NCBI GenBank assembly: GCA_023136265.1
Contig: JAGLRN010000069.1
Span: 8,680-72,679, forward strand
DNA length: 64,000 nt
Source: Thermoplasmata archaeon
Lineage (GTDB): Archaea; Thermoplasmatota; Thermoplasmata; RBG-16-68-12; JAGMCJ01
Direction of reading: 5' to 3'
In this document: positions 7,759 through 57,528 of the stretch, one piece after another
Numbering within the stretch: the first letter of the stretch is position 1
Layout: each line of letters begins with the position of its first letter
Program-made: the position numbers and the translations under genes
The notes under the pieces: model-generated
What the model saw: only the letters and a program-made list of their open reading frames with translations
Databases searched by the model: none
Told to the model about the DNA's origin: nothing

Positions 7759-10700
7759 ATGTCACGGAACGAGAGTGGATCTACCATCCAGACCTGGATT
7801 CTGGCTGTCATACTCATGGCGACATCGGCCTTTGCGTTTGCAGGCGGGCAGTTGGCCACGCCAGAGTCAGAAGCTCCCGCGAGAGAGCTCACGGATGTCC
7901 AGGCGGATTCGGTTTTCCACTACGAATCTCACGTTATCACCGCGGAGGAGGTCGAGAGGCTCAAGGCGGAGTTCGGCGTGCGGGACCCGCAGAAGAACTA
8001 CAACATACTGTTCGACGGGTTCGGCACAGGACTCGCCCCGCCGACGGAGGCTGAATGGCAGGCCATGATCGGCATATTGTGGATCGACGGCGTCAACGAC
8101 CCGATGCTCGAGCCCATGGTCGACCACTCACAGGAGCCGCACTTTCCGAAAGTTCGAAGCCAGCAGAGCCAGGGCTCCTGCTCGGCCTGGTCCGTCGCAT
8201 ACTACATAAACGGTTATAACCAGGCGAAGGACCTGAACTGGACGGACGCATCCACGGGGAACAACAACCATCTTATGAGCCCGGCCTTCGTGTACAACAA
8301 GGCAAACTCGGGCTTCGACTCCGGCTCCTGGCCGTCGGGAAACATGGAGGTCATCAAGACCGTCGGGAACTCCGTCTGGGCGGAGATGCCCTACGACGAT
8401 GGCGACGCGATCTCCTGGGGCGATGAGGACGCGTGGAGAAGTGCACCCGAGTTCCGCGGACTGGACTACCAGTTCACGGATCCGTCCAACACGGACATCA
8501 TCAAGGCGTGGGTCGCCGAGGGATACGCCATCTCGATAGTCCTGGATGCAGGCAACTACGGAAGGGGACTCGGAAGCGGCGACGACATTATCAATTCTAC
8601 CGAGCATGTAACGGGGAATCCCAATCACGCGAACACCATCGTGGGATACAACGACAGCAAGGAGGACGACGGTGAGATCGGCGCCTTCAAGGTCGTCAAT
8701 TCCTGGGGCGCTGGCTGGGGCTCTGCTTGGGGAGGCAACGGCTACTACTGGATGACCTACGAGGCCGCGGACGAGCTTCCAAACATGGCCATCAGATTCC
8801 GCGACAGGATCAACCACGAGCCGTCCCTGCTCGGCATCGTGAACATGGACCCCCAGGGCGGCAGAAACGCTCCCGTGACTCTTGGCATCGGTCCGATCAA
8901 CGACCCCACCGCCACTAGATTACCCTGGTGGAGGGGAGGGAACCACGACTTCCCGGCCTTCATGGCGCTGGACTACACCGACTTCAAGAACGAGTGGAGG
9001 ACCGGGCAAAACCTCTTCTTCCTCAGCGTCGGCACGGGGACAGACTACTCGACGATGACATCCTACAAGATTGAGCTTTACGAGGGCGGATACAGTCCAG
9101 GCGTCTACACGCGTGTATCGGACGAATCCCCTGACACGCCGGAGGACACGCCGGGGACTGTAACGGTCTCCTTCTACCCGAGCATGAGGATGTTGAGCCC
9201 TCTCGACGGCGACAACATCAACGGGCTCGTGAACATCTCGGGACTGGCGACGAACCCGATGTGGACGGTCGTTCTCAGAGAGGACTTCGAGGGCTCGTGG
9301 CCCGGCACCTGGGTCGTGGGCGACAGCACGAGCTCTGGAGGTGAGGACTACTGGGGCTTGACCAACACCACGTACTACGATGGTGTGACGAGCGTGTGGT
9401 CCGCGGCATTCGGAGAGTACCTCGAGACCGCTCATACGGAGGATTTCGACAGCGGCGGCCTCATGCCGCCGGATTGGACGACCCTCAGCATGGGTCCGGA
9501 CTCGCACCCGTGGGAGATGAAGCTGGAATCGGGAAGCGACTACATCGCGGAGTGTAGCAGCTTGAATGCGGGACCGGGTACCGACATCACGGAATGGTTA
9601 CAGATGAGCACGGGCTTCGATGCCAGCTCCCAGTCCTCGCTCAACCTCACGTTCTATTTGGACTATCAGCATGGCGACGGAGACGAGTACGCGAGCGTGC
9701 TGTACTCCACGAGCGCCAACTACCCTGCGTTCACGGGACTTCGAACGTGGATGTCCACGACGCAGGGGATTCAAAGCATCGATCTCTCGGCTGCGGCCGG
9801 AGACCCCTCCGTCTATCTCGCGTTCCTCTATCACGGCACGAGTGACCAGCACATGCGGGTCGACGACATCGAGGTCATCGGCGGGCTGCCCAACGGCAAC
9901 AGGCAGCAGTACGACAACGACATGGACGCCTATATGCAGCACGACGTCGACTTGAGCGGGCACGACCTGGCCACTCTCACGTACAACTACTGGGTGGACT
10001 CCGAGAGCGGCGTCGACTACATCTACGTCACATATTACGATGGGGCATGGAACTACGTCGATCCGCACACGGGTGACAGCGGCGGATGGCAGGGCTCGAC
10101 GGTCCCGATCCCGACGACCGCAACCAAGATAGGATTCCACTTCCACAGCGATGGCAGCGGCATGGCAGAGGGCGCCTACGTGGACGACGTCCTACTGCTC
10201 GGCCACGGCGTCATCGATGAGGTCTACGTTAAGATAGACGACGCCTCTTGGACGCTTGCGACGGGGACGGCGAACTGGTACTACGAATGGGACACATCGT
10301 CCCTGCTGGAGGGCTGGCACACCGTGTACGCGAGAGCGGACTACGGTTCCGACTCCACGGAGGACTCCGCTCGGGTCACGATCGACGACACGCTCCCGAT
10401 GAACCCGAACGGCCACACCTCCTCGCACACGCCATCGGTTTGGTCGAACGACGATACCGTGTGGATACGGTGGTATGGGGCTTGGGACAACGTTAGCGGG
10501 ATCGGGGGCTTCGCGGTCGAATGGACGATGAGTCCGACCTCAGTACCCGCGGAGACCGTCGACACGACGGAGGCAGAGACTACCAGCTTCGCGCTCACCG
10601 ACGGCAACAGCTGGTACGTGCATGTCAGGACCGTCGACAAAGCTGGCAACTGGGCAGTAGGTGCATACCACGTCGGACCGTTCTACATAGACACGACGCC

Positions 10701-12564
10701 GCCCGAGAATCCGAACAGCCACAGCTCCAGCCATGCGATACTCGTGTGGTCAGGCGACGACACTATATACATGGAGTGGGCAGGGGCCTCCGACACCATG
10801 AGCGGCGTCTACGGCTACTCGCACAGCTGGTCGTTGAACCCCAACACACTGCCGATCAATATGATAAGTTCCGTTTTCACGAATACCACCAGCTTCCCGC
10901 TGGGTCCGAGCGATAGCTGGTACTTCCACATCAGGGCGAGGGATAACGCGGAAAATTGGGCCTCGACCGCCTATCACGTAGGCCCGTTCTACATAGATGT
11001 TCAGGATCCGTGGACCACTCACGCCTTCACCGGAACGGTGGGCGACTTCGGCTGGTTCGTATCCGACGTCAACATCATTCTCATGCCTGCGGACAATCAC
11101 AGCGGCGTGGACGTGACGACCTACAGGATCAACGGTGCACCATGGACCGTGTACTTCTCGCCGCCGGATGTCGTTGTCGACGGGAACTACCTGGTGGAGT
11201 ACTACTCGGTGGACAACGTCGGCAACTTCGAGATGACGAACATCGGCACCTTCGACAGGGATGCCACCGCCCCGCTCAACCCCGACGGCTTCTCATCGAG
11301 TCATGGTGTCGGGATTTGGTCAGAGGACGACACTATAGACGTCAGCTGGACAGGCGCTTGGGATGCGACGAGCGGCGTATACGGCTACTCGTTCGATTGG
11401 ACGCAGTCACCCGCTACACTTCCTGACACGAACGTGGACTCGACAAGCCCGAGCACGACGAGCCCGCCACTCGGGACGGGCAGCGACTGGTACTTCCACG
11501 TGAGGACTCGAGATGTGGCAGGCAACTGGGCTCCTGACGCCTATCATGTGGGACCGTTCTGCATCGACGTCAGCCCGCCTACAACACTGGACGACGTATG
11601 GGCAGTCCTTGAAGGTGTCGGATGGCGGGATGTCAACATCACTTGGACGTTCGCAACGGACCTCGAATCGGGCGTCCAGAGGTATGACATATACTACGGC
11701 ACGACCTACGATCCGTTGGGGACTGGCTACGTGCTCCTTGGCTCTGTACCTGCTGACACGGACTACCTCGTTCATGCTAGTGGCGGAGAGGGGGACTTCA
11801 GCAACCACTTCTATCAGATCAGGGCGGTGGACCAAGCCAACAACTCGGCGCCTTACGCGACCCAGGCAGGTAAGTATGTGAAGAACCTTGCTCCGGGTTG
11901 GAAGCTTCTCTCGGTCCCGCTGGAGCAGAAGGATGAGTCCGTAGGTGCGGTACTCAGGACATTGGACTTCGACACCGCGCGCTACTACTATGCAGGAAGC
12001 TGGAAGAGCTACTCCACGCAGAAGAACTACTGCACACTGGAACAGATTGGCACGAACATGGGGATATGGGTAAACGTCATGAGCGGCTCCAATCTGACCG
12101 TAGCCGGCAGGGTCCCAACGGCGACCCTCGTAAACCTGGAAAAAGGGTGGAACCTCGTTGGCTTTCCGTCATTTGGTACAAGCTACACAATCGCGGACCT
12201 GAAATTCGATTCAGGGGCGATTAGAGTGGAGACGTTCAACGCATTCTCGCCACCTTACTTCCTTAGGGTCGCGAACGACATCGAGACGATGACAGCGGGC
12301 AATGGCTACTGGATCGAGGTCTCTATGTCGGGAACATGGACTGTGATGAATGAGGCGGGCAATCCGCAGGACCCGAAGGATTCCGCGGGCAATGAAGGAC
12401 TCAAATCTCTCCCGCCAGGAAACCAGGGCACATCAACCTCGGAGCCGGATCCCGCTCAAGTCGCTGGAGTTCAGGCCGCTCAGCAAATCGATATTCCCAG
12501 CCTGCTAGCACTCGCGCTCGTTTCGCTAATCGCTCTGCTGGGCACTGTTTTTCGCCGCCACTGA
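7759..12564 (+). CDS. Giant secreted, membrane-anchored protein. Its domains are an N-terminal signal peptide, a papain-like (C1) peptidase domain, about 100-aa SSH/W-DDT repeats, an FN3-like domain, a C-terminal module shared with two other proteins in the window, a low-complexity linker and a C-terminal TM anchor
   Basis: Signal peptide MSRNESGSTIQTWILAVILMATSAFAFAG. C1 peptidase motifs QGSCSAWSVAYY (Cys region), HANTIVGYND (His) and NSWGAGWGSAWGGNGYYWM (Asn/Trp). The repeat is ...SSH...W..DDT...W.GA.D..SG..GY...W...P.TLP...WY.H.R..D.AGNWA..AYHVGPFYID. The C-terminus is ...LLALALVSLIALLGTVFRRH. Confidence 0.75.
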   Translation: MSRNESGSTIQTWILAVILMATSAFAFAGGQLATPESEAPARELTDVQADSVFHYESHVITAEEVERLKAEFGVRDPQKNYNILFDGFGTGLAPPTEAEWQAMIGILWIDGVNDPMLEPMVDHSQEPHFPKVRSQQSQGSCSAWSVAYYINGYNQAKDLNWTDASTGNNNHLMSPAFVYNKANSGFDSGSWPSGNMEVIKTVGNSVWAEMPYDDGDAISWGDEDAWRSAPEFRGLDYQFTDPSNTDIIKAWVAEGYAISIVLDAGNYGRGLGSGDDIINSTEHVTGNPNHANTIVGYNDSKEDDGEIGAFKVVNSWGAGWGSAWGGNGYYWMTYEAADELPNMAIRFRDRINHEPSLLGIVNMDPQGGRNAPVTLGIGPINDPTATRLPWWRGGNHDFPAFMALDYTDFKNEWRTGQNLFFLSVGTGTDYSTMTSYKIELYEGGYSPGVYTRVSDESPDTPEDTPGTVTVSFYPSMRMLSPLDGDNINGLVNISGLATNPMWTVVLREDFEGSWPGTWVVGDSTSSGGEDYWGLTNTTYYDGVTSVWSAAFGEYLETAHTEDFDSGGLMPPDWTTLSMGPDSHPWEMKLESGSDYIAECSSLNAGPGTDITEWLQMSTGFDASSQSSLNLTFYLDYQHGDGDEYASVLYSTSANYPAFTGLRTWMSTTQGIQSIDLSAAAGDPSVYLAFLYHGTSDQHMRVDDIEVIGGLPNGNRQQYDNDMDAYMQHDVDLSGHDLATLTYNYWVDSESGVDYIYVTYYDGAWNYVDPHTGDSGGWQGSTVPIPTTATKIGFHFHSDGSGMAEGAYVDDVLLLGHGVIDEVYVKIDDASWTLATGTANWYYEWDTSSLLEGWHTVYARADYGSDSTEDSARVTIDDTLPMNPNGHTSSHTPSVWSNDDTVWIRWYGAWDNVSGIGGFAVEWTMSPTSVPAETVDTTEAETTSFALTDGNSWYVHVRTVDKAGNWAVGAYHVGPFYIDTTPPENPNSHSSSHAILVWSGDDTIYMEWAGASDTMSGVYGYSHSWSLNPNTLPINMISSVFTNTTSFPLGPSDSWYFHIRARDNAENWASTAYHVGPFYIDVQDPWTTHAFTGTVGDFGWFVSDVNIILMPADNHSGVDVTTYRINGAPWTVYFSPPDVVVDGNYLVEYYSVDNVGNFEMTNIGTFDRDATAPLNPDGFSSSHGVGIWSEDDTIDVSWTGAWDATSGVYGYSFDWTQSPATLPDTNVDSTSPSTTSPPLGTGSDWYFHVRTRDVAGNWAPDAYHVGPFCIDVSPPTTLDDVWAVLEGVGWRDVNITWTFATDLESGVQRYDIYYGTTYDPLGTGYVLLGSVPADTDYLVHASGGEGDFSNHFYQIRAVDQANNSAPYATQAGKYVKNLAPGWKLLSVPLEQKDESVGAVLRTLDFDTARYYYAGSWKSYSTQKNYCTLEQIGTNMGIWVNVMSGSNLTVAGRVPTATLVNLEKGWNLVGFPSFGTSYTIADLKFDSGAIRVETFNAFSPPYFLRVANDIETMTAGNGYWIEVSMSGTWTVMNEAGNPQDPKDSAGNEGLKSLPPGNQGTSTSEPDPAQVAGVQAAQQIDIPSLLALALVSLIALLGTVFRRH
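10400..11580 (+). repeat. Three or four tandem coding repeats of about 300 nt (100 aa) inside the giant protease-like gene
   Basis: Repeated peptide NP(N/D)GH(T/S)SSH...VWS.DDT...W.GAWD..SG..GYS..W...P.TLP...WY.HVRT.D.AGNWA..AYHVGPFYID at 10400, 10700 and 11270, with an unrelated insert between copies 2 and 3. Confidence 0.6.
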
Positions 12565-14749: not shown

Positions 14750-17700
14750 CTACTCTTCCTGGGGCTCTTCCTGAATCAAGAGCCTGGGCAGCATTCTGGC
14801 TGTCTCGATCGTCGCCTTGCCAGAGCTCAAGAGCTCCTGGACATCCTTCTTGAGGAGCTTCGCTCCCCTTGGCGGGTAGACCATCCCGATGAGCGCGTCC
14901 TCGACCACGTACTTCCTCGGGATGAGTGCCAAACCGTGCTGGACGCCTTCGACGACGATGCAGCTCGTCACCTCTCCGATGACCGCCTTCCCTCTCACAA
15001 CGAACAATCCCGGACGGACGACCCTTATGCCCTTCCTCTCCATTCTGAAGCGGACGACCTCCCGCTTCCTGTCGAACGCCTTCTCGACGGCCCTCTGCCT
15101 GCCGACGAAGAACGGCTTGTGGAGCTTGACGAACGACCCGTATCCAGCCTCAGTCGGGAAGAGGTCGTGCTTGCCCGCCAGCTCGTTGCCCCAGAGCGGG
15201 AATCCCGCCTCGGTCCTCGTCGAGTCCCTCGCCCCCAGCCCCGCCGGCTTCACGCCGAAGAGTTTGCCCGCCTCAAGGATGAGATTCCACAGCTTGGGCG
15301 CCTTCTTCGGATGAATGAATAGCTCGTAGCCGTACTCCTCTCCCGTGTATCCTGTGCGGGAGATAATCAGAGGGGTGGCGGCTATCCTCGCTCTCATCAG
15401 TTCAAACCTACCGAGCGACCAGAGCTTCCTCCTGTCCTTCTCCCCTTGGACGAGTTCCATGAGGACCTCGCGGGACTTGGGTCCCTGCAGCGCGATGTCC
15501 ACCCGCTGGTCCCTCCCGCTCGATAGGTCCTTCAGGTCCCTCACGGAGACATCCCTGGTCGCCTCGACCGTTGGGTGCTCGCGGCTCAGGAGATATTCCC
15601 CGGTGCTCGCAGCCTGAAGCCAGGCGAACACCTTCTCCGCGTTCACGGCGTTCGCGACGACCATGTAATCGTCCTCGCCGATCTTGTAGATGAAGATGTC
15701 ATCGATGACGCGCCCCTCGATGTCCAGCACGTAGGAGTACTGCGACTCGCCGGGTCTGAGCCATCGTACGTAGTTCGTCGTCACGGCATCCAGGAACTCC
15801 GTCGCATCCCTGCCCTGAACGCTCAGGACGCCCATGTGGCTCACGTCGAAGAGCCCGGCCGTCTCGCGGACCGCCCTGTGCTCCTCCGCGATGCTCGTGT
15901 AGAGTATGGGCATCTCCCAGCCTGCGAAGGGCTTCATCGAGGTCTCCTTGGTCAGCTTCAGGTGCTCCTCGTACAGGCAGCTCCTCCGCAGCGGGATGTC
16001 CTCCGGCTCGTACCTGTATATCCTCTTCCGCGACCTCTGGCGAAGGAAGTCCCGCTGACCGATAAAGTAGGGTTTCGTCATGTCCATGAACTCCTTGCGC
16101 CTCAGGACGATCTCGCTCGCGTGGGCCTTCCTCCTGCCGTAGATGGGGAGGTAGCGCCTCTTCCGCATCTCCAGCTCGGCGTCCATCCCCGCCGGGCCCA
16201 CGCCCATCCTCTTTCCGGCGTCCAGTAGAGCGTTCCAGAGGTCCACGCACTTGCGCCTGCTGACGATCAGATGATATCTCTCGCACTTGAGGTGCATCCC
16301 GGACCATCCGATCGTGACTCTGATGCCATCCAGGGAGGCCTTCACCGCACCTCTGCCGTCCCATTTCTTCAGCTCTGGTGAGAGCTTGTTCAGCATCCTT
16401 AGGCTCTTATGCCCATGCAGGATTATGCTCGTCTTCCCATCACGCTTCAGGTCCCTCACTATGACGGGACCTTGGACCTTTCTGAAGATGTCGTCATCGA
16501 ATATGACGTAGGAATCGGAAAGCGCGCGGAACCACAGCTTGACCGTGTCCGCGTTCTGAGGGTTTGCAACAACGATGAACCTGTCCCTTCCCGTCTTGTC
16601 GGGGGTTTCCCTCATCACGACGACATCGTCGATTATCCTCCCCTCCTTGTCCAGAACCAGGGTCCTCAGGCTGTCACCGAATTCCATCCCACGAATCGGC
16701 CCCGTGCAGACCTCATCGAGGAAGGGTCTTGCCCGCCACCCGACGACCTCAAGCAGCCCGTGCGTCCAGCCGTCCAGGACGCCCGCCGTTTTCGAGATCT
16801 TCTCGAGGTCCTTCTTCGGCGTGTGATAGACCGCAGGAATCCTCCACCCGCCGACCCTCCTCATTTTGGCGCGGGACATCCTGTGAATCCCCTCAAGAGG
16901 ATTCTCGACTTCCTCACCTTCGCCGGTGCCATAGTGCGGATAGCCGTGTCTCGGTGCGGGCACCTCGCTCCTTGCCTCCTTGACAAGCTCGTCGACGTCT
17001 CGCTTGACCTCCTCGAGTATCCTGAGCTCGATCTTCCCCCTGCCCACGTCCTTCTCCCGACCGACGTAGTGGAAGGGCTGGATGTTCGTCAGGACCCTGT
17101 GGGCCAAGGCGGCGATCTTCTCCATCTGGCTCTTCCCGAACCCTCGCTGCGTCACCCACGTCGTGCCGAAGCGTACCGCGCTCGGGTGTATGGCATTCTC
17201 ATCGTACGGGATCGTGTTCTTGTTGATGACGATACCGCAGAGCTCCATGATGCGGGAGGCTATCTCGCCCGTGAGCGGGTAGCCGGTCTTCGTCTTGATG
17301 TCCCTGAGGTCAATGAGCAACAGGTGGCTGTCAGTCCCGCCGTAGGCCACCGTGAGCCCGAGCTTCTTGAACGAGCTCACCAGATGCTTCGCGTTCTCCA
17401 CGATCCTCCTCGTCAGCTCCCTGAACTCGGGCGTCTTGGCTATCTCGAAGCACACGGCCTTCGCGATGACGTTGTTCAGGTGCGGCCCGCTCTGCTCTCC
17501 CGGGAAGACCGCCCGGTCCAGCGCCTTCGCCTTCTCCTTGTCCGTGGTCAGGAGGACGGCCCCGCGAGGACCGCAGATCGACTTCTGGGTCGTGAACATG
17601 ACCACGTCCGCGTATCCTATCGGGTTGTTGAACTGCCCGCCGACGATGAGACCTGCGACGTGAGCCATGTCCGCGAGGAGAATGGCCCCGCCAGCCGCGT

Positions 17701-18409
17701 CGGCGACCTCCCTGAACTTCTTCCAATTGATGTTCCACGGGTAGGCGCTGTACCCCGCGATGACAAGCTTCGGTCTGTGCTCCTTGGCGAGCCTCTTCAG
17801 CTCTTTGAAGTTGAACTTGCCGGTCCTGTCGTCCGGGTAGTAGGGGATCACGTTGTAGTACCGTCCGGAGCGGTTCACCTCGCTCCCGTGGGTGAGATGT
17901 CCGCCCGCGTTCAGCGCCATCCCCATGACCGTGTCGCCGGGCTCAAGGAAGGCGTTGTAGACGGCGTTGTTGGCGATAGCGCCCGAGAGCGGCTGGACGT
18001 TCGTGTGAATCTCGTCCGCGGATATCTCGTCCGTCGCGAAGATCTCCGCCAGTCTCTTCTCCGCCAGGTTCTCCATGACGTTGACGTACTCACAGCCCTT
18101 GTAGTACCTCCTGTCCGCGTATCTGCGCTGATGCGTCATCTGGTGCTCGTAGTCCGTTGCCAGCCCCCTGTCCTCCTTGTCCATCCTGACCGATGGATGC
18201 CCCTCGGCGTAGAGGTTCGCGAAGGCGGACGCGACCGCCTCCCTCACCGGGCTGGGACAATAGCTCTCGGATGCGATCATTATGAGCTTCCTATCCTGCC
18301 TCTCCTCCTCGAAGCCTATGAGGTCAGCGACCTCCTTGTCGATATCCTCGAGGCGAGCGTTGAAGACCAAATCCGCGTAAGTTCTCTTGGCCATGCGACC
18401 ACTCCTCAT
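14750..18409 (-). CDS. glyA: Tri-domain fusion: serine hydroxymethyltransferase (GlyA/SHMT, about aa 1-480) fused to two tandem aminomethyltransferase (glycine-cleavage T protein, GcvT)-like units (about aa 500-790 and 800-1219)
   Basis: SHMT motifs: [46 protein letters not shown] (PLP-Lys region). Canonical GcvT unit: [48 protein letters not shown]...[17 protein letters not shown]...[23 protein letters not shown]. A degenerate paralogous GcvT unit lies upstream of it ([15 protein letters not shown]...DDVVVMR...[17 protein letters not shown]). It is one continuous 1219-aa ORF. Confidence 0.8.
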   Translation of the reverse strand: [1219 protein letters not shown]

Positions 18410-18735: not shown

Positions 18736-19875
18736 ATGAAAGGGAAGGTATTGGCAATCTTCGCGGTGACTTCGCTCGGATTCCTCTTCATTCCGCTCTC
18801 CATTTCTGAGCCAGCGGCCGCTTCTTCGGTGACTCTTTTCGAACCGACCGAGATTGAGAGCAGTTCACTGCGATTGCGTTATTCAGATCACCCATATCAG
18901 GAACCAGATCCTGACGGAGAGGGAATCTGCTATTTTGACGGGATGGAAGTTCACACATCAACCGTACCTAGTTTCGCACCAGGCTTGGACACTCGGTATG
19001 GAACCGCCTATGGCTCTGGATCGACTCGCGTGCATGGCCTGACGCCTTCCACAACTCACTACTTCAAGATCGTCGTATTGCACAGAAGTGGATATGGCCA
19101 GGGGGAACCTTCATGTTCTCTCGAGGGAGAAGCCTCAAATGAGGTCTCTGCGACCACCCTACCATCTGCGGTATACTTCCGGGAAGCTGTCGCCAATCCC
19201 GATAGGCCATGGGACACTCTTGATCTGTCCTGGAGAGCGAACAGGGACGTAGAGGGCTTCCAGAAATATGTCGTCGAACGCGCTTCTGCTGCGAATTTTT
19301 CGGATGCCATCACGGCAGCCACTATCGAGAATCAGGCAACGGAGCAGTATTCAATTCGCGGACTGTCACCATCCACCGCCTATTTCTTCAGAATAGCAGT
19401 CCACGCTACAACGGGAGAAACAAGTCTCTCATCTCTGATTGCCGCGACTACGGAAGATGTGCCAGATGTAATCGCGGTTTCGCTTTATGTACCCTTCAGT
19501 TCGGATGTCACACAAACCAGCGTCGGCCTGAGCTGGCATCACGCACATGATAGATATTGCGAGAAACATGTCATCGAAAGAGCCACATCACCTGATTTCA
19601 CTGGTTCTGTATCCATCATCGTGAAAGACTGCAACATCACGGAATACAACTGGGGAGGTCTGAAAGCTGGTACGAAGTACTACTTCAGAGTGGTATCACA
19701 CAACACTGCTGGCATCGAGGCAACATCCAACACCGTCACTGCAACCACGAGGTCTCAGTCGGTACCCGTGACTGAAATCGTGATTGCTGCGAATACCGTA
19801 ATCTTGGTCATGATCCTGCTGCTGGTCCTGATATCACTAATGAGGAAGAAGACCAAATCCGGCAAGCAAGAATAA
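18736..19875 (+). CDS. Surface protein with a signal peptide, three fibronectin type III-like domains and a C-terminal TM anchor
   Basis: Signal peptide MKGKVLAIFAVTSLGFLFIPLSISEPAAA. Three FN3-like blocks ending GLTPSTTHYFKIVV, GLSPSTAYFFRIAV and GLKAGTKYYFRVVS. C-terminal IVIAANTVILVMILLLVLISLMRKKTKSGKQE. The gene and its upstream region are visibly less GC-rich than the neighbours. Confidence 0.7.
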   Translation: MKGKVLAIFAVTSLGFLFIPLSISEPAAASSVTLFEPTEIESSSLRLRYSDHPYQEPDPDGEGICYFDGMEVHTSTVPSFAPGLDTRYGTAYGSGSTRVHGLTPSTTHYFKIVVLHRSGYGQGEPSCSLEGEASNEVSATTLPSAVYFREAVANPDRPWDTLDLSWRANRDVEGFQKYVVERASAANFSDAITAATIENQATEQYSIRGLSPSTAYFFRIAVHATTGETSLSSLIAATTEDVPDVIAVSLYVPFSSDVTQTSVGLSWHHAHDRYCEKHVIERATSPDFTGSVSIIVKDCNITEYNWGGLKAGTKYYFRVVSHNTAGIEATSNTVTATTRSQSVPVTEIVIAANTVILVMILLLVLISLMRKKTKSGKQE

Positions 19876-23855: not shown

Positions 23856-25871
23856 ATGGCTAAGGAATCTGAAATGAAACAGAAGTCAGTAGACCCAGCG
23901 ACACTGGAGATGTTGGAGAAGGTGCGCGATTCGGACGTGGATGCCACAACGATGTGGGACCGCTACGAGACGATGCAGCCACAGTGCCGCTTCGGAGAGC
24001 TGGGAATATGCTGCACGATATGTCTTCAGGGACCGTGCAGGATCAATCCGTTCGGCAAGGAACCCTCGCGAGGCATATGCGGGGCGACGGCCTACACGAT
24101 CGTCTCGAGGAACCTTCTCAGGAAGATAGCGGCAGGATGCTCTGCCCACTCCGACCACGGAAGACACATAGCCCATACCATGAAGGCTCTTGTCGACGGA
24201 AAAGCCGACGCCTACTCGATCAAGGACGAGGACAAGCTCAGAGTCGTCGCGCAGAGGGTTGGCATAGATGTAGATGGAAAGGACACGATGGAGCTGACGA
24301 AGGAGCTTCTCGGGGAGGCATTCGAGGACTTCTCAAGGGTAGAGCACGAACCACTCACCTGGTTGCGGACCACGCTCACTCCCAGGAGGCTGGAAATGTT
24401 GGACAGATATGGTGTCCTTCCAAGCAACATCGATGCCGCGGTCGTGGAAATCATGCATCGCACCCACATAGGTGTGGATGCAGATCCCGTTCCCCTCATC
24501 TTCAGCGGGATAAAATGCGCTCTCGCCGATCTGGCCGGTGAGCACATATCCACGGACCTGAGCGACATCCTGTTCGGAACTCCCATGCTCACGTTCACTG
24601 AGTCGAACCTCGGTGTGCTCAAGAAGGAGTCCGTCAACATCGCGATGAACGGTCACAACCCCGTACTGAGCGAGATCATGTGCGATATTGCAGAGGAGAT
24701 GAAGGGTGCCGCCGAGGAAGTTGGAGCGGACGGCATAAACATCGTAGGGATATGTTGCACCGGAAACGAACTGCTCATGCGGCGGGGGATTCCGCTTGCG
24801 ACCAACTTCGCCTCCCAGGAGCTGGCCATCATGACTGGTGTCCTTGACGCCATGGTCATCGACTATCAGTGTATATTGCCCTCGCTTGGGATGTGGGCGA
24901 ACTGCTTCCACACGAAGCTGATATCGACGTCCGACCTCTGCAGGCAGACAGGTGATATCCACATAGAGTTCAATCCCGCGAGCGCGAAGGAGGATGCACG
25001 GAGGATACTCCTTCTGGCCATCAACGCCTACAAGGACAGGAATGAGAATGCCATTCACATACCGGATGTGAAGGAGACTTCCTGTGTCGGATTCAGCGTG
25101 GAACAGATCATGGAGATTCTGTCCAAGGCCTCCGATGATCCTCTTCAATATCTTGCGGACAAGCTCAAAGAGGGAAAGATCCAAGGATTCGCAGCACTCG
25201 TTGGGTGCAACAATGTGAAGACCTGCCATGACCTCAATCATCTGACCCTCGCAAAGGAGTTCATCAAGAACGATATCCTTGTCATCTCGACAGGCTGTGC
25301 CGCGGGCGCCTACGTCAGAGCGGGACTCACGAACTCCAAGGCGACCAAGGACCTCGCGGGAGAAGGTCTGAAGGAAGTGCTCACCGAGCTTGGAGAGAAG
25401 TTTGGCTTCGACGGCCCGTTCCCGCCCGTCTGGCACATGGGGTCCTGCGTTGATAACTCACGAATACACGACTTCATGACGATGCTCGCGAACAAGATGG
25501 GAATTGACATCAAGGACCTTCCCGTCGTGGCGAGTGCGCCCGAGGACATGAGCGAGAAGGCGGTCGTGATAGGGACGTGGCTGGTGGCGACTGGCTGGCC
25601 GACCCACGTGGCGGTGCTACCGTTCATACATGGAAGTCCCCTCGTGGTGCAGATAGCCGAGAACACCGCCCGCGACGTTTACGGAGGCTACTTCGTCTTC
25701 GAGGAGGACCCGGACGAAGCTGCCAGGAAACTGGTCAACATAGTGAAGAACCGACGCTGGAGGTTGGGCATTGGTGAGGACAAGGAGACCATCTATTGGT
25801 CCGGCGAGACCAAGGAGGATGTTTTCGCGGAGAAACCTGAGGTCGCGGCTGACGGAGGTGAGGAGGAATGA
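23856..25871 (+). CDS. cooS: Ni-dependent carbon monoxide dehydrogenase catalytic subunit (CooS/AcsA)
   Basis: 671 aa with D/B-cluster cysteines CRFGELGICCTICLQGPCRI, C-cluster region HSDHGRH, and CCTGNELLMRRGIPLATNFASQELA...GCNNV. Confidence 0.9.
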   Translation: MAKESEMKQKSVDPATLEMLEKVRDSDVDATTMWDRYETMQPQCRFGELGICCTICLQGPCRINPFGKEPSRGICGATAYTIVSRNLLRKIAAGCSAHSDHGRHIAHTMKALVDGKADAYSIKDEDKLRVVAQRVGIDVDGKDTMELTKELLGEAFEDFSRVEHEPLTWLRTTLTPRRLEMLDRYGVLPSNIDAAVVEIMHRTHIGVDADPVPLIFSGIKCALADLAGEHISTDLSDILFGTPMLTFTESNLGVLKKESVNIAMNGHNPVLSEIMCDIAEEMKGAAEEVGADGINIVGICCTGNELLMRRGIPLATNFASQELAIMTGVLDAMVIDYQCILPSLGMWANCFHTKLISTSDLCRQTGDIHIEFNPASAKEDARRILLLAINAYKDRNENAIHIPDVKETSCVGFSVEQIMEILSKASDDPLQYLADKLKEGKIQGFAALVGCNNVKTCHDLNHLTLAKEFIKNDILVISTGCAAGAYVRAGLTNSKATKDLAGEGLKEVLTELGEKFGFDGPFPPVWHMGSCVDNSRIHDFMTMLANKMGIDIKDLPVVASAPEDMSEKAVVIGTWLVATGWPTHVAVLPFIHGSPLVVQIAENTARDVYGGYFVFEEDPDEAARKLVNIVKNRRWRLGIGEDKETIYWSGETKEDVFAEKPEVAADGGEEE

Positions 25872-28024
25872 CCAAGGTCACACAGACGGAACTGTTCAGC
25901 ATGGCGATTTCCGGAGCCATAACGGCAACCGGCTACGCTGACGTTCTCCTGAACCGCGCCCTGAGGAAATACGGTCCTAACCAGACGATCGAGTATCCAG
26001 ACACGGGATACGAGCTTCCCTGCTTCTACGGCTGGACGACGACGCCCGTGAAGACGCTCAGTGACCTTCCCGCCCTCCTCGGAGAGGTCAGGGGGAAGAT
26101 AAGGCACGAGCCTACTCTCGAGAACGCGCTAACGGCCGGTGAGGCCACCATGTGGTCCGCCGAGATCGTGGAGGCGCTTCGGTACATCAATAACGATAAG
26201 CCGTTCGAGAACGAGGCCCCGCCAGGAAAGCAGGAGTACTGCGGTTTCGTGGGCGATCCCGTCCTCAGGAATCTGGGCATAGCGTTCGTCGACGATACCA
26301 TCCCTGGTGCTGTAGTCTTCGTCGGAAAGGCGAAGGACCCGGAGGCGCTAGCGAGGATAGTGAGGGACTTCCAGAACAAGGGCATGCTGCTCATGGCGAC
26401 ATTCGACATAATCAGGCAGCTCGAGGACCAGGGAATCAAGATGGGGACTGACATAATGCTCTTTCCCCTCGGCGAGTTCACGCAGGCGATACACGGCCTG
26501 AGCTTCGCCATCAGGGCCGCCCTCGCTTTCGGCGGGATAAAGCGCGGAGACCGAGAGGGACTGCTGAAATACCTCAAGACGAGACCCAAGGTCGTGGTGT
26601 TCCAGTTCGGCCCGCTCGACCAGATTAAGGTCGCAGCCGAGTTCGCCGTGATGTTCAACGGCTCCCCGACGATCACGGACCAGGATGTAGAGGAGATCCC
26701 GGGCAAGTACATCGTGCAGAAGGACTACGACCAGATGGTTCAGACGGCCATCGAAGTAAGGGACATGCAGGTCAAGCTCGCAGCCGTCGACATCCCGGTC
26801 CCGTACGGACCCGCGTTCGAGGGCGAGACCGTCAGGAAACCGGACACATACGTGGAATGCGGTGGACCCTCCAAGACGCCCGTCTTCGAGCTGGTGAAGA
26901 TGCGAGAGGCGGACGAGGTCGAGGACGGCAAGATAACCATGATCGGGAAGGATGTCGACGAGCTCGAGGAAGGGAGCGGCAGCCCGCTCGGGATCGTAGT
27001 CGAGGTTTACGGAAAGGACATGCAGAAGGACTTCGAGTCTGTCCTGGAGAGGAGGATACATCAGTTCATCAACTTCACCGAGGGCGGGTGGCACACGGGC
27101 CAGAGGAACCTTCTTTGGATAAGGCTCAGCAAGGACGGTGTCGGCCAGGGACTGAGGTTCAAGCACTTCGGCGACGTGCTGCACGCCAAGTTCCACGACG
27201 ACTTTGGCGGACTGTTGAGCCGTGTTCAGGTGACCATAACAACGGACCCGGCGGAAATCGAGAAGCACCTTCCGGAGGCGATGGAATCCTACGATTACAG
27301 GGACGAACGCCTGAGAGGCATGACCGACGAGGCCGTGGAAACGTTCTACACCTGCACTCTGTGCCAGAGCTTTGCCCCGAACCACGTGTGTATCATCACT
27401 CCCGAGAGGCTCGGGCTCTGCGGCGCCATCAACTGGCTGGACGCCAAGGCCAGTAATCAGATTACGCCGACGGGTCCGAATCAACCCATTGACAAGAAGA
27501 CCACTATAGAGGAGGTCAAGGGCCAGTGGGAGGGCGTGAACGAGGCGGTAATCGAGCACTCTCACGGGAAGCTGGACAAGTTCAACATCTACACCATGAT
27601 GGAGGACCCGATGACATCGTGCGGCTGCTTCGAATGCATCGTCGGCATAGTTCCTGAGGCGAACGGCGTCGTCGTTGTAAACCGGGAGCACGGCGGGATG
27701 ACGCCCCTGGGGATGAAGTTCTCCACGCTCGCTGGAACTGTGGGCGGCGGACTGCAGATGCCTGGGTTCATAGGCGTCGGAAGGTACTACCTACTGTCGA
27801 ACAAGTTCATAAGCGCGGATGGCGGATTCCAGAGGATCGTCTGGATGCCGAAGGAGCTCAAGGACGCGATGTACGACAAACTTAAAGAGAGAGCAGAGGA
27901 ATTGGGCATTCCCGATTTCGTGGACAAGATCGCTGACGAGACGGTCGCAACGGAATCGGCGGAGCTGCTTGAGTTCCTCGCAGAGAAGGAGCATCCAGCT
28001 CTGAAGTTACCATCTATGCTGTAG
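25868..28024 (+). CDS. acsB: Acetyl-CoA synthase catalytic subunit, full-length bacterial type (AcsB)
   Basis: 718 aa with the N-terminal domain present (SGAITATGYADVLLNRALRKYGP), the A-cluster motif TSCGCFECIVGI, FYTCTLCQSFAPNHVCIITPERLGLCGAINWLD, and C-terminal ...HPALKLPSML. It is collinear with the Moorella-type AcsB rather than the about 470-aa archaeal CdhC. Confidence 0.9.
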   Translation: MTKVTQTELFSMAISGAITATGYADVLLNRALRKYGPNQTIEYPDTGYELPCFYGWTTTPVKTLSDLPALLGEVRGKIRHEPTLENALTAGEATMWSAEIVEALRYINNDKPFENEAPPGKQEYCGFVGDPVLRNLGIAFVDDTIPGAVVFVGKAKDPEALARIVRDFQNKGMLLMATFDIIRQLEDQGIKMGTDIMLFPLGEFTQAIHGLSFAIRAALAFGGIKRGDREGLLKYLKTRPKVVVFQFGPLDQIKVAAEFAVMFNGSPTITDQDVEEIPGKYIVQKDYDQMVQTAIEVRDMQVKLAAVDIPVPYGPAFEGETVRKPDTYVECGGPSKTPVFELVKMREADEVEDGKITMIGKDVDELEEGSGSPLGIVVEVYGKDMQKDFESVLERRIHQFINFTEGGWHTGQRNLLWIRLSKDGVGQGLRFKHFGDVLHAKFHDDFGGLLSRVQVTITTDPAEIEKHLPEAMESYDYRDERLRGMTDEAVETFYTCTLCQSFAPNHVCIITPERLGLCGAINWLDAKASNQITPTGPNQPIDKKTTIEEVKGQWEGVNEAVIEHSHGKLDKFNIYTMMEDPMTSCGCFECIVGIVPEANGVVVVNREHGGMTPLGMKFSTLAGTVGGGLQMPGFIGVGRYYLLSNKFISADGGFQRIVWMPKELKDAMYDKLKERAEELGIPDFVDKIADETVATESAELLEFLAEKEHPALKLPSML

Positions 28025-28036
28025 GGGCTTGGTACA

Positions 28037-28999
28037 ATGGCATTGGAGTTGCCCAAGGAGAAGTGGGTAGGGAAGATTGGACAAGTCGTCATCGGAGCCC
28101 TCGAGAGCGAGGGGGGAACGCGGACGAGCAAAGTTGCCCTGGGAGGGGCAACGAGCCTGCCTTTCCTCGGCTTTGAGGGCGAGTATCCGAACGAGCCGCC
28201 GATAGGGATGGAGATTTTCGACATCGTCCGAGAGGACTATCCAGAGGTTGCGAGGAAGCCCTTCGAGGATGTCATCGACGACCCCGGTAAGTGGGCCAAG
28301 AAGTGCGTCGAGGAATACGGCGCGGACATGATCTGCATCAGGATGATCGGCACGAACCCGGAGGAGGAGAACCGCTCGGTCGAGGACGCTGAACAGACGA
28401 TCAAGGAACTCAAGGAAGCGGTCGGAGTCCCGCTCCTGATCTACGGCTCCGGAGATGAGGAGAAGGACGCCAAGGTCCTCGAGATGGCCTCGAACGTTAT
28501 GGCCGGCGAGAGATGCCTTCTCGGTCTCGCGGAGGAGGCCGCGTACAAGTCGATATCCGTCGCGACCATGTCCAACGACCATGGAATCGTGGCGTTCAGC
28601 AATCTGGACATCAACCTGGCGAAGCAGATGAACATCCTGCTCACGGATTTCGGTGTCAAGCTCGGGAACATCGTCATGGACCCGCTTCAGGCGGGCCTAG
28701 GATACGGGCTCGAGTACTCGTACTCGGTCATCGAGAGGATCCGGCTCGCCGCGCTCATGGGAGATAAGATTCTTCAGGTTCCCATGATGTGCGGGACAGC
28801 GCGCGTCTGGAACGCGAGGGAGGCGTTCAAGGAGGACGCCGACACCGGGGATTCCACCTCCCGAGCGATATTCTGGGAGGCCACGACCGGTCTGTCCGCC
28901 CTACTGGCGGGCGCGGACGCGCTTCTCATGAGACATCCGGATGCCGTCAAGCACGTCAAGGAGTCCGTCAAGAACCTCTACGGAGGAGGCGAGCAGTAA
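28037..28999 (+). CDS. acsD: Corrinoid iron-sulfur protein small subunit (AcsD/CdhD-like TIM barrel, bacterial length)
   Basis: 320 aa, MALELPKEKWVGKIGQVVIGA...VALGGATSLPFLGFEG, typical of the CoFeSP delta subunit. Confidence 0.8.
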   Translation: MALELPKEKWVGKIGQVVIGALESEGGTRTSKVALGGATSLPFLGFEGEYPNEPPIGMEIFDIVREDYPEVARKPFEDVIDDPGKWAKKCVEEYGADMICIRMIGTNPEEENRSVEDAEQTIKELKEAVGVPLLIYGSGDEEKDAKVLEMASNVMAGERCLLGLAEEAAYKSISVATMSNDHGIVAFSNLDINLAKQMNILLTDFGVKLGNIVMDPLQAGLGYGLEYSYSVIERIRLAALMGDKILQVPMMCGTARVWNAREAFKEDADTGDSTSRAIFWEATTGLSALLAGADALLMRHPDAVKHVKESVKNLYGGGEQ

Positions 29000-30333
29000 T
29001 GGCGCTCACTGCCCTGGACATCTACAAGAAACTGCCGCAGACGAACTGCGGGAAATGTGGGTTCCCAACATGCCTGGCATTCGCGATGCAGCTGGCCAAC
29101 AAGAAGGCGAGCATCGACGCCTGTCCGGACGTCTCGGACGAGGCAAAGGAACTGCTGGAATCCTCAGCCGCACCGCCGATAAAACTGGTGAAGGTGGGCT
29201 CTGGGGACAGGGAGATTGAGATGGGAGACGAGGTCGTCATGCATAGGCACGAGAAGACGTTCTACCATCCTGTCGCGTACGCCCTGATGGTCGATGATGA
29301 CTCTCCAGACATAGAGTCCAAGGTCCAGGCGGCCGGGGAGATGAAGTTCGAGCGAGTGGGGCAGGAGATGCAACTCGACATGATCGCAATTCGCTCGAAA
29401 TCGGACGATCCAGCGAAGTTCTCCTCTGCCGTCTCCGCGGTGAAGGGAAAGACGTCAGTACCGCTCGCGCTCGTGTCGCAGAACCCAGCGGTCATAGAGG
29501 AAGGGCTGAAGGTCTGCGGCTCTGACAGACCGCTCATTCACGCCGCGACCAAAGACAACTTCGAGAAGATGGCGGAGCTCGCGAAGGCGAACAACTGCCC
29601 GCTGGCGGTCCTCGAGGACTCGGGACTGGAGGAGCTCGCTGAACTGAGCAAGAAGGTGAAGGAGGCGGGCGTGGAGGACATAGTCCTTGACCTCGGCAAG
29701 AAACCCCTGGGCAAGCTGTTCCAGGAGCTCACGCTGATCAGGCGGCTCGCCATCAAGAAGCTCTTCAGACCTCTCGGCTATCCGATCATCATGTTCGCCG
29801 AGGGCGAGGGGGCAAGCGAGGGTCTGGAAGCCGCGATCGGAACCCTGAAGTACGCTTCCATCGTCGTTATGAAGGAGGCGGACAGGGCCATCATGTATCC
29901 GCTGTTCACGCTCAGGCAGAACATCTACACAGACCCGCAGAAGCCCATACAGGTGAAGCCTGGCATATACGAACTCAACGGACCCGCCGAGGACTCACCG
30001 GTGATGATCACCACGAACTTCTCGCTCACTTACTTCACCGTCGCGGGGGACATCGAGACCAGCAAGGTCCCGAGCTATCTCCTCGTGGCCGATTCCGAGG
30101 GTCTGTCCGTGATGACGGCGTTCGCGGCGGACAAGTTCACCGCCGACACCGCTACGGAGCTGATAGAGAGCTGCGGGATTGCGGACAAGGTCAATCACAA
30201 GAAGATCATCATCCCCGGACAGGTGGCGAGGATGAGTGGAAAGCTCAACGAGAACTCCGGCTGGGAAGTGGTCGTGGGACCGAGGGATTCCTCCGGCCTT
30301 CCGAAGTACCTGAGAGAATACACTAGCGCCTAG
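28999..30333 (+). CDS. acsC: Corrinoid iron-sulfur protein large subunit (AcsC/CdhE) with an N-terminal [4Fe-4S] motif
   Basis: Starts MALTALDIYKKLPQTNCGKCGFPTCLAFAMQLA (Cx2Cx4C...C), with the ATG overlapping the acsD stop (TAATG), followed by TIM-barrel and B12-binding regions. The listed ORF has a spurious 70-aa N-terminal extension. Confidence 0.85.
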   Translation: MALTALDIYKKLPQTNCGKCGFPTCLAFAMQLANKKASIDACPDVSDEAKELLESSAAPPIKLVKVGSGDREIEMGDEVVMHRHEKTFYHPVAYALMVDDDSPDIESKVQAAGEMKFERVGQEMQLDMIAIRSKSDDPAKFSSAVSAVKGKTSVPLALVSQNPAVIEEGLKVCGSDRPLIHAATKDNFEKMAELAKANNCPLAVLEDSGLEELAELSKKVKEAGVEDIVLDLGKKPLGKLFQELTLIRRLAIKKLFRPLGYPIIMFAEGEGASEGLEAAIGTLKYASIVVMKEADRAIMYPLFTLRQNIYTDPQKPIQVKPGIYELNGPAEDSPVMITTNFSLTYFTVAGDIETSKVPSYLLVADSEGLSVMTAFAADKFTADTATELIESCGIADKVNHKKIIIPGQVARMSGKLNENSGWEVVVGPRDSSGLPKYLREYTSA

Positions 30334-31473
30334 CTACATCTGCGTCGGGTCCAGGTAGCTCGCTTCCTTCTTCCTGATCGGCTCGAGTGACTTGTCCACG
30401 GTCTTTTTCATCTGCAGACCGGAGACGTGCATCAGAGTGTCCCCGAGGTCGTCCTCGACGTTCATCGAGCACAGGCATGGATAGTGATGGTGCGCCAGCC
30501 CCGCCTTTTCCACGGCATCCCTGACCTCAGTTCCTGGGAGTTTATCGGCAACGAACCTCCCGCAGCCGCAGGGCGAGTCACGCACGACCTCCGTCCCCGT
30601 CACGGTGTTCTTCTCGACCTTCACGTCCAGTATGGGCCTTCCGAAGAATTCAGCGAACTTGTCGATGATAGGATTGCCCACCGCATCGAGGGTGCAAAAG
30701 GGCCTCGGGAACGCGGTTGCGATTCCGGTCTTTGAGAGTTCCCGCTTGATTTGCGTCTTCATCCCGAGTGGTAGCCACTGTGAGCTGTCCACCGGTGCGA
30801 TTAATGCCATCGCATCTGCGGCCTTCACTATGTCTACGATCAGTTGAGCGGCGCTCGAGTTCTCCTGCAGGGCGAGCACTAGGTCCGCTTTGGGCACGGA
30901 CTCTGGCAGGAACTCAGCGGGGTCGTCGATGACGAGTGGCAGGTCCACCGGGAGCATCAGTGTCTCCACCTTGAAGCCCTCGGGACCGTTGTCCTGAACA
31001 TTCTTGGCGATGCGCTCACCGTACTCACCCTGAACGAGCGCGAGAATCGTCATTTCTCCTTTGCCTACCCGCTCGAGTTCCTCGGCGGTCAGCTCCCGCT
31101 TCTGGATTTCCTCCTCCTTCTCCGCGGCCCGCTCGACGTGATAGGTCGGCCCTCTCTCCAGAGCCTCAAGAAGCCGCTTCTCGAAGGCCTCCATTTCGTC
31201 CCAATCTAGCTCTTCGCCTATGTCCAGAGCGATCGCCGAGTGCTTCGCCTCCCCCTGGAGCGTGTTCTTCTCGCCCGCGAGAACGGAGATCTCCGTCTCT
31301 CCAACGATCAATCGGAGGTTCGAGAAGACCTCCTTCTTCTTCTGAGCCTTGAGATATACCCTCTCAGGAGTGTAGTCGAAACGGCACGATCCTGTGCTGA
31401 GCGCCGCCGATCTGAGGGCCGCAACGACATCGCTTCCAGAGTATTCCTTGCCGAATGTGACTTCCTTTCTCAT
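30334..31473 (-). CDS. Hypothetical protein with a C-terminal Cys/His motif, embedded in the acs cluster
   Basis: 379 aa with no recognisable catalytic motif. C-terminal SPCGCGRFVADK...HHHYPCLCS. It is convergent with acsC with zero gap, and sits upstream of acsF/cooC2 on the same strand. Confidence 0.4.
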   Translation of the reverse strand: MRKEVTFGKEYSGSDVVAALRSAALSTGSCRFDYTPERVYLKAQKKKEVFSNLRLIVGETEISVLAGEKNTLQGEAKHSAIALDIGEELDWDEMEAFEKRLLEALERGPTYHVERAAEKEEEIQKRELTAEELERVGKGEMTILALVQGEYGERIAKNVQDNGPEGFKVETLMLPVDLPLVIDDPAEFLPESVPKADLVLALQENSSAAQLIVDIVKAADAMALIAPVDSSQWLPLGMKTQIKRELSKTGIATAFPRPFCTLDAVGNPIIDKFAEFFGRPILDVKVEKNTVTGTEVVRDSPCGCGRFVADKLPGTEVRDAVEKAGLAHHHYPCLCSMNVEDDLGDTLMHVSGLQMKKTVDKSLEPIRKKEASYLDPTQM

Positions 31474-31506
31474 GTTCTGCCTCTGCCGACTAGAAGTTGG
31501 CGCTGG

Positions 31507-32253: not shown

Positions 32254-32254
32254 C

Positions 32255-33256: not shown

Positions 33257-33279
33257 CGGAAGGAAATCCGCACGGAAGG

Positions 33280-48494: not shown

Positions 48495-48507
48495 ATGACC
48501 ACCGTGT

Positions 48508-52698: not shown

Positions 52699-52775
52699 CG
52701 TTTCGCCCCGCCTCTCCCCTGTTAAGCCAGCAGAATGACAGTCTGGATAATAACGGACTATTAAAGTGCATCGTA

Positions 52776-57449: not shown

Positions 57450-57528
57450 TCAGATGAGAAACGAGGGAGAGGGTCGCTTGTCTGGAGGAGGAAGTGCAGG
57501 GGCCGATTCTTGTGCCAGAAGGAGTGCG

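Follow-up and report, generated by a model that had tools for sequence, protein, structure and literature searches.

A 64,000-nucleotide (nt) window from an uncultivated sediment Thermoplasmata archaeon (assembly GCA_023136265.1, contig JAGLRN010000069.1, positions 8,680–72,679 of the forward strand), by which we mean the whole stretch of DNA analyzed here, encodes three secreted-type proteins, A, B, and C, that carry copies of the same C-terminal module. There is good support for regarding this module as a compact extracellular domain that is autonomous, spans about 155 amino acids (aa), and derives from the tandem duplication of a unit of about 75–90 aa. It very probably represents a large, unnamed family of two-unit C-terminal domains on Sec-exported multidomain proteins. 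In all that concerns function we infer binding, ligand, and cell association, and we favor, with a probability of roughly 0.4, a module that docks or retains its protein non-covalently on the producer’s own surface via a protein or glycan receptor.

The three open reading frames (ORFs) lie on the plus strand and their heads are unrelated by Pfam: Peptidase_C1 in the papain-like A (7759–12564, 1601 aa), PNGaseA in B (57421–59793, 790 aa, PNGase-A-like at aa 94–249), and FG-GAP with Transglut_core in C, which is adjacent to B and runs past the window end (60391–63999, more than 1203 aa, with a start that may lie upstream at 60283). Module copy A spans 11896–12351 (aa 1380–1531) and copy B 59317–59790 (aa 633–790), while copy C begins at 63739 (aa 1117) and comprises unit 1 only, up to 63999, as the window ends inside the module. 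These positions agree within a few codons with a first-pass annotation of the window, which had described a module shared by three giant and otherwise unrelated proteins. The first Trp of the signature it proposed is, however, Ala in C (GANLLSVP).

With compositional adjustment in BLASTP, A and B are 40% identical over 156 aa (E = 6e-40) and C and B are 40% identical over 89 aa (E = 4e-20); the resemblance is therefore not compositional, the outcome that the first-pass annotation had named as fatal to its proposal. Its description of the proteins as otherwise unrelated holds for the heads but not for all of the remainder, since A and C have in common a longer cassette made of about 140 aa of FN3-like sequence and the module (A aa 1238–1462 versus C aa 975–1203, 31% identity over 235 aa, E = 3e-18 in BLASTP). 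This upstream region, which occupies 11470–11895 (+) directly 5' of the module in A, is provisionally labeled FN3 on the basis of a motif, and the “FYxxCAVDxxNxS...AGKF” cassette stands before the module in most archaeal relatives too. As B has only the module in common with the others and the A–C likeness is longer, B alone sets the N-terminal boundary of the module. No further copy was found in the six-frame translation of the window with a hidden Markov model (HMM) of the three copies and filters off, the next best match having E = 2.4.

The first-pass annotation had allowed that a profile search might uncover a known domain. Instead, when 1.84 billion cluster representatives were searched exhaustively with HMMER, a huge family emerged: 12,671 proteins match at E ≤ 1e-3, of which 5,554 remain at E ≤ 1e-10 and 975 at E ≤ 1e-30. 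Members are about 260 to about 1600 aa long, and “giant” is accordingly not a trait of the family. A word-index search with the three copies returned only 16 short fragments; its matches reach at most about 311 aa (fragments or short gene calls), whereas the exhaustive search returned mostly proteins of 500–1400 aa, and from this contrast in length the word-index route seems to under-sample long members. In agreement with a discrete, uncharacterized module, neither Pfam-A (2025) nor NCBIfam (2026) contains a model that covers it, be it in the window proteins, in 15 isolated modules at E ≤ 10, in bacterial members, or in 65 full-length relatives (about 90 relatives in all), and no catalytic family of either library matches it. 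Precomputed Pfam assignments for about 240 database matches cover upstream domains only. Three profiles (A2, A4, and A6) found nothing credible among PDB sequences, and we dismissed as noise a designed Kelch propeller matched over a 21-residue stretch (E = 0.0075) and PRDM16 (E = 1.4). A literature search by motif and by topic found no published description. We conclude that the family itself is undescribed, although a remote relationship to a known domain is conceivable; its general kind, a non-catalytic C-terminal module on secreted proteins, is known.

The two halves of the module are related to one another. Their profiles align with a probability of 94% (hhalign, E = 1e-7), and the units follow one pattern, with G-W-x-L-x-x-x-P at the start and G-x-G-Y-W-[IV] at the end. 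Identity between the two units reaches about 60% in bacterial members, one of which (P0211) has GWNL..., YDLVYAYxAxDxxDPWKKYNTAAPPFLNDLTE, and G.GxWIR in both. A unit HMM built from bacterial sequences only matches unit 1 of A (11896–12144; GWKLLSVP ... GIWVNV ... NLTVAG; E = 1.4e-6), unit 2 of A (12145–12351; GWNLVGFPS ... GNGYWIEV ... WTVMN; E = 9.9e-5), unit 1 of B (59317–59583; GWHFISVP ... RYYDASDPGDRWKTYH ... GFWINIT; E = 4.7e-13), and unit 1 of C (63739–63999; GANLLSVP ... RLYDASDAGDPWKSYH ... GIWVNA ... NLTVIG; E = 3.2e-9), all on the plus strand. With this HMM, exactly two units are present in 275 of 365 matched proteins and ORFs and true three-unit cases in none, four that scored “three” being split matches. 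The 86 one-unit scorers probably represent either fragments or copies whose second unit has diverged; in fact, the complete protein B scores its first unit only, its second unit (59584–59790, +) reading GWNMVGFPS ... GEGYWIQL ... DWFVPSV before the stop codon, and the second unit is degenerate in archaeal copies. The acidic loop YDASDxGDxWKxY, which we regard as ancestral in unit 1, is retained there in B and C, while A has a 4-residue deletion at this site. The module as a whole is acidic, with an isoelectric point (pI) of 4.4–5.0.

We note that N-x-T sequons (WVNVT, SNLTV, and FNxT in unit 2) are strongly conserved in archaeal copies and absent from Chloroflexi copies, which suggests that N-glycosylation of the archaeal module is conserved. 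Within the window, module sequons occur as NLT at 12091–12099 in A, NIT at 59512–59520 in B, and NLT at 63946–63954 in C.

Structure prediction, which the first-pass annotation had recommended, yields a confident fold. With an alignment of 131 sequences, AlphaFold2 models the B module at a mean predicted local distance difference test score (pLDDT) of 95.9 and a predicted template modeling score (pTM) of 0.88, with the order strand, helix, four strands in each unit, and the high pTM suggests that both units pack as one compact domain. Foldseek found no match to this model at E ≤ 1e-3 in PDB or in BFVD, and an earlier model of mediocre quality (pLDDT 77.7) likewise gave no significant match. 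On the strength of the model, the module probably adds a new fold to domain classifications. The best local structural likeness is between one unit and RCK_C/TrkA_C domains (BusR 7wjg_B and GsuK 4gx5_B) over 61–63 columns, with a root-mean-square deviation of 3.1–3.8 Å, a Foldseek probability of 0.63–0.77, a non-significant E of 0.46–0.72, and a query-normalized template modeling score of at most 0.28. The Foldseek similarities to cupins and to RCK_C are local and fall short of significance. The Pfam model of RCK_C/TrkA_C (PF02080) likewise does not match, and RCK_C domains are cytoplasmic ligand sensors.

The position of the module is nearly invariant. The first-pass annotation had asked whether a transmembrane (TM) helix or a free C-terminus follows it, and we find almost always the latter: at the best 80 of 104 loci confirmed in a pattern scan that covered a single genome for each GTDB species, the module ends less than 5 aa from the stop codon in 81 of 85 copies. 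Similarly, the best 150 matches of the exhaustive search end 0–3 aa past the module, except P0101, whose match is partial (profile 4–168, protein residues 294–458 of 502), and in B the stop codon lies 3 residues past the last strand. The module is single-copy per protein. A hydrophobic, signal-like N-terminal segment is present on A, B, and C alike and in 115 of 149 relatives, and a C-terminal TM-like segment in 0 of the 149. Most members stop directly after the module, but protein A continues with a linker and a TM helix. The exceptions to C-terminal placement at the genome loci are the A orthologs L001 and L002 (85–88% identical to A), which keep this linker and TM helix, and L073, the sole exception that is not of the A type. 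In L073 (2068–4200, from the metagenome-assembled genome (MAG) “Methanobacteriota archaeon” S2_100), the module occupies aa 312–470 of a 711-aa ORF and precedes 241 unrelated residues.

That chance or composition produced the resemblance of A, B, and C is refuted by the adjusted BLASTP values, the 12,671 relatives, in which motifs are conserved and Trp and Gly positions hardly vary, the confident compact predicted fold, and the strict conservation of position. Taken as a whole, a fortuitous likeness or a passive spacer with no specific function is extremely improbable.

The full architecture of A, from N- to C-terminus, comprises a hydrophobic signal-like segment, the papain-like peptidase (aa 121–335), three repeats of about 100 aa with an OmpL47-type barrel (found with NCBIfam), the FN3-like region, the module, a 46-aa low-complexity linker rich in Pro, Gly, Ser, Gln, and acidic residues (12355–12492, +), and a TM anchor (12493–12564, +; helix IPSLLALALVSLIALLGTVF, basic tail RRH, then stop; Kyte–Doolittle 19-residue window 2.37). 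The tandem repeats fill aa ~880–1290 (nt ~10400–11400), with the barrel between the second and the third (aa 1101–1161); their consensus, NPNxHxSSHxxxVWSxDDT...SGVxGYSxxW...WYFHVRxxDxAGNW...YHVGPFxID, recurs in the ortholog L002. B consists of a hydrophobic segment, the PNGase-A-like region, a sequon-rich middle, and the module at a free C-terminus. In C, a hydrophobic segment is followed by FG-GAP repeats, a transglutaminase-like core, the FN3-like region, and the start of the module. None of three alternative starts of B has an exact database record, and no orthologs of B or C are among the retrieved loci.

Archaea predominate at the loci, 78 of the 80 lying in MAGs labeled Thermoplasmata, Thermoplasmatota, Methanomassiliicoccales, or “Methanobacteriota”, while the other two belong to Chloroflexia and Anaerolinea. 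Named database matches, annotated as “hypothetical” or after another domain, add Ca. Proteinoplasmatales SG8-5, Chloroflexi, Anaerolineae, and Brevefilum. Paralogs are numerous, with at least 13, at least 11, and at least 8 in single MAGs. Heads vary widely. Among 55 randomly sampled relatives surveyed with Pfam, NosD/β-helix heads occur in 40, CARDB and fn3 in 5 each, VWA in 3, LTD in 2, and β-propellers, BNR, and FG-GAP in 1 each. Peptidase heads also exist among module proteins, and Chloroflexi members carry metallophosphatase, Listeria-Bacteroides repeats, PKD, MBG-type, and cadherin-like domains. Module genes are clustered, with more than one at each of L015, L036, L081, and L082, and small proteins made of a signal peptide and the module (262–315 aa) adjoin giant module proteins. 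On two JGI metagenome contigs that appear Chloroflexi-like (L082, 585–9958, and L081, 43–6006), clusters of two to three module genes place module-only proteins of 262, 266, and 315 aa beside a 1574-aa β-helix protein and a giant S8 peptidase, a layout that recalls the WxL csc clusters.

A single copy per protein at the extreme C-terminus and numerous cargo paralogs in each genome, whose heads are unrelated, are also what the C-terminal domain (CTD) of type IX secretion system (T9SS) cargo displays, and the module might thus be a sorting or secretion signal that a machine dedicated to export, attachment, or processing would recognize and perhaps cleave. We consider this improbable. Thermoplasmata-related archaea and Chloroflexi have a single membrane, and together with the Sec-type N-terminal segments this means that a second translocation step is not expected. 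Moreover, models of the T9SS CTD, PGF-CTERM, and other sorting signals do not match; a conserved sortase- or translocon-like neighbor was not found within ±3 kb at the 80 loci; the module is internal in A, L001, and L002, where a linker and TM helix come after it, and in L073, where 241 aa do; and cargo-less proteins of signal peptide and module exist. A pure secretion signal therefore ranks low given single-membrane hosts, occasional internal placement, and cargo-less members.

We instead favor docking or retention on the producer’s surface, which would operate as follows: (I) Sec export and removal of the signal peptide would leave the head, be it a peptidase, amidase, transglutaminase-like, β-helix, CARDB, VWA, or other domain, with no membrane anchor, (II) the non-catalytic C-terminal module would bind a component of the producer’s surface non-covalently, possibly a membrane-anchored or surface-layer (S-layer) protein or its glycan, and (III) this binding would keep exoenzymes and adhesins cell-associated. 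The logic would be that of WxL, GW, SLH, or dockerin domains of monoderm bacteria, with a different fold. A single copy at the extreme C-terminus of dozens of paralogs, behind unrelated heads, points to a docking or sorting type of module rather than to a catalytic one or a typical carbohydrate-binding module (CBM). The Sec-type N-termini point the same way, as does the lack of a membrane anchor in typical members while module-less neighbors carry TM anchors. In fact, the module-less giant secreted proteins of the window (43731–57449, minus strand) end in a TM helix and an acidic tail, the three-copy HMM finds no module in the four other giant ORFs of the window, and a TM-helix ending and a module ending look like alternatives.

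Several observations weigh against docking. A, L001, and L002 carry a TM anchor behind the module, which consequently cannot be their sole anchor. Members occur in both archaea and Chloroflexi, and since the envelopes of the two differ, a protein partner or a generic ligand is more likely than a ligand tied to one kind of envelope. No conserved non-module neighbor was found within ±3 kb at the 80 loci. Paralogs are 0.42–0.65 identical within genomes versus 0.47 between them; they are thus not homogenized, and nothing suggests that they co-evolve with a single receptor specific to the genome. The proteins that comprise only a signal peptide and the module complicate an anchoring as well as a secretion-recognition role. 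Finally, viral receptor-binding proteins sometimes borrow host surface-binding domains, and no copy was found on viral contigs of IMG/VR. The TM anchor of A, the span from archaea to bacteria, the missing neighbor, and the unhomogenized paralogs favor instead the substrate-binding or homotypic-assembly alternatives.

Clusters of flanking ORFs at the 80 loci, screened for a partner gene, were antisense shadow ORFs of module genes only, and concerted evolution of paralogs, which would mark one shared receptor, was not seen. No copy was found on PLSDB plasmids either.

Substrate binding is the main rival of docking. A CBM-like or lectin-like module would bind an environmental polymer or particle and target the head to its substrate and not to the producer cell, with detrital glycan, peptidoglycan fragments, and mineral-associated organic matter as conceivable ligands. 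Such a role would suit the heads, which are mostly hydrolase-, lyase-, or adhesin-like, the presence of both module and TM anchor in A, and the fact that some members comprise only a signal peptide and the module. It would also suit the loops in which aromatic and acidic residues are conserved, e.g., YDAxDxxDPWKxY, a motif shared by B, C, and both units of bacterial members. Two unrelated lineages of anoxic-sediment heterotrophs, Thermoplasmata/Ca. Proteinoplasmatales and Anaerolineae, have the module (PMC9123169), a spread that is easier to explain if the ligand is independent of the host envelope. Nevertheless, unlike most CBM families, the module is strictly single and extreme C-terminal (81 of 85 copies) and never N-terminal or in tandem arrays, and no likeness to CBMs or lectins emerges from Pfam, PDB sequences, or Foldseek. 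Furthermore, no archaeal copy retains the acidic-loop motif in unit 2, and unit 1 has lost it in A and in the majority of archaeal members. On balance, we regard substrate binding as unlikely, though as the strongest of the alternatives.

The internal pseudo-two-fold architecture would also lend itself to oligomerization, where a pseudo-symmetric two-unit domain gives homotypic contacts that assemble β-helix dimers or trimers, or a lattice of module proteins possibly nucleated by TM-anchored, A-like members. NosD/β-helix heads, the most frequent in our survey (40 of 55), are often oligomeric, TM-anchored proteins (A, L001, and L002) stand alongside many free members in related genomes, and assembly fits a distribution over archaea and bacteria. 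The heads are, however, too diverse for a head-specific folding role, and the modules of paralogs in one genome are only about 50% identical. A role in assembly thus appears to us a distinctly remote prospect compared with surface docking.

Elsewhere in the window, a single 1219-aa ORF (14750–18409, −) joins serine hydroxymethyltransferase (SHMT, aa 97–434) to an aminomethyltransferase/GcvT folate-binding domain (aa 815–1091), an unusual combination of one-carbon enzymes in one protein. Among the metabolic genes lies a 379-aa ORF product (18736–19875, +) that has fn3/PhoD_N-like domains and may be another small secreted protein. A Wood-Ljungdahl-type cluster (23856–35184) includes CODH of the Prismane family (23856–25871), the ACS/CODH beta subunit (25868–28024), a DUF166 protein (30334–31473, −), and the RACo corrinoid activase (33280–35184, −); two overlapping ORFs both match CdhD (28037–28999 and 28789–30333) and may represent two subunits or a frameshift. 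Adjacent giant paralogs of 1611 and 1396 aa (43731–52698, −) contain internally repeated Big_13 domains, are 45–55% identical over many offset alignments, have ORF calls that overlap by 59 nt, and end in a TM helix and an acidic tail with no module. Next to them, a 1557-aa ORF (52776–57449, −) combines PPC, Big_13, SBP_bac_5 (solute-binding-protein family 5), and fn3 domains with a C-terminal TM anchor, setting a solute-binding protein within a giant surface protein.

Anaerolineae and Thermoplasmata-related archaea (Ca. Proteinoplasmatales/SG8-5 and MBG-D relatives) rank among the main candidates for the breakdown of detrital protein and polysaccharide in anoxic sediments (PMC9123169), and whether their exoenzymes are free or cell-bound bears on carbon-turnover models. 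The module marks a large share of the secretome (at least 10 proteins per genome) to which current annotation is blind; naming it would annotate thousands of “hypothetical” C-termini and provide a handle for finding the receptor or ligand. If it is a retention module, it could serve as a display tag for archaeal or Chloroflexi surfaces.

Comparison with known systems sets the module apart from each of them while suggesting a shared logic. The first-pass annotation had judged by eye that it resembles neither SLH nor T9SS CTD, and the models concur. Regarding archaeal sorting signals, NCBIfam finds no match to PGF-CTERM or to other archaeosortase/exosortase signals; A ends in a TM helix and RRH but lacks a PGF-type motif, and B and typical relatives lack a C-terminal TM helix. 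The T9SS CTD (Por_Secre_tail, PF18962/TIGR04183) likewise occupies the extreme C-terminus in single copy on dozens of cargo paralogs with unrelated heads. The module is, however, about twice its size, consists of two strand-plus-helix units, is sometimes internal, and has as its named hosts Thermoplasmata, Methanomassiliicoccales-labeled, Ca. Proteinoplasmatales, and Chloroflexi/Anaerolineae MAGs, not Bacteroidota and allies, and the T9SS CTD models of Pfam and NCBIfam do not match it.

Dockerins (PF00404), which are present in bacteria and archaea, are similarly docking modules, mostly C-terminal and internally duplicated, that many enzymes with different catalytic heads carry. Unlike the dockerin, which has about 70 aa and two Ca-binding helical segments, the module has about 155 aa and is predicted to be strand-rich with one helix per unit, and neither the dockerin nor the cohesin (PF00963) model matches in Pfam. 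GW modules and SLH domains are terminal tandem units that hold secreted proteins non-covalently on the cell surface (PMC5817068). The GW module (SH3_8, PF13457), named for its Gly-Trp dipeptide, resembles ours in its units of about 80 aa; SLH units (PF00395) have about 55 aa and usually number three, in contrast to two units of 70–90 aa here. The ligands of both are bacterial (lipoteichoic acid, peptidoglycan, and pyruvylated wall polysaccharide), Pfam finds no match to PF13457 or PF00395, and SH3b/GW or SLH structures are absent from the Foldseek matches in PDB.

By analogy of logic, the module most resembles the WxL domain of Lactobacillales (PF13731/IPR027994). WxL is a C-terminal domain of 120–190 aa with two WxL motifs and an acidic pI, found in small domain-only and in large multidomain proteins with variable N-termini, whose genes are clustered, e.g., CscB/CscC (PMC1534035, PMC5817068). 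It attaches non-covalently to the surface and interacts with a cognate TM protein, and its distal motif, YxxxLTWxLxxxP (where L may be I or V), lies at the C-terminal end (PMC5817068). The module likewise is a C-terminal domain on small and large Sec-exported proteins with acidic pI and clustered genes, and W-x-L-x-x-x-P opens each of its units in A and B. The motifs themselves are short and could arise by chance. Both W-x-[LMF]-x-x-x-P motifs fall inside the last 158 residues of B; in A they lie about 138–221 residues from the C-terminus, the first beyond the 120–190 range of WxL; C lacks the first Trp; and only 37 of 131 family members have both in this form. Unlike in WxL, the motifs open the units, about 155 and 70 aa from the end, and the second WxLxxxP follows [AKS]G and not Y...[LIV]T, so that the distal motif is absent. 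PF13731 matches none of the three window proteins (E ≤ 0.1), 15 modules (E ≤ 10), or 10 + 55 full-length relatives. The module is therefore not a member of WxL, as neither the model nor the distal motif fits.

The hosts differ as well, being archaea and Chloroflexi and not the Firmicutes (Lactobacillales and Bacillales) of WxL. The archaeal hosts have no peptidoglycan, which consequently cannot serve as the ligand there, and relatives of Thermoplasmatota are often wall-less. In sum, we tentatively propose, with less assurance than for docking itself, that the module constitutes an undescribed cross-domain system of non-covalent surface display, with which Thermoplasmatota and Anaerolineae of sediments might keep dozens of exoenzymes and adhesins on the cell via a putative receptor, a new-fold counterpart of WxL, SLH, and dockerin.

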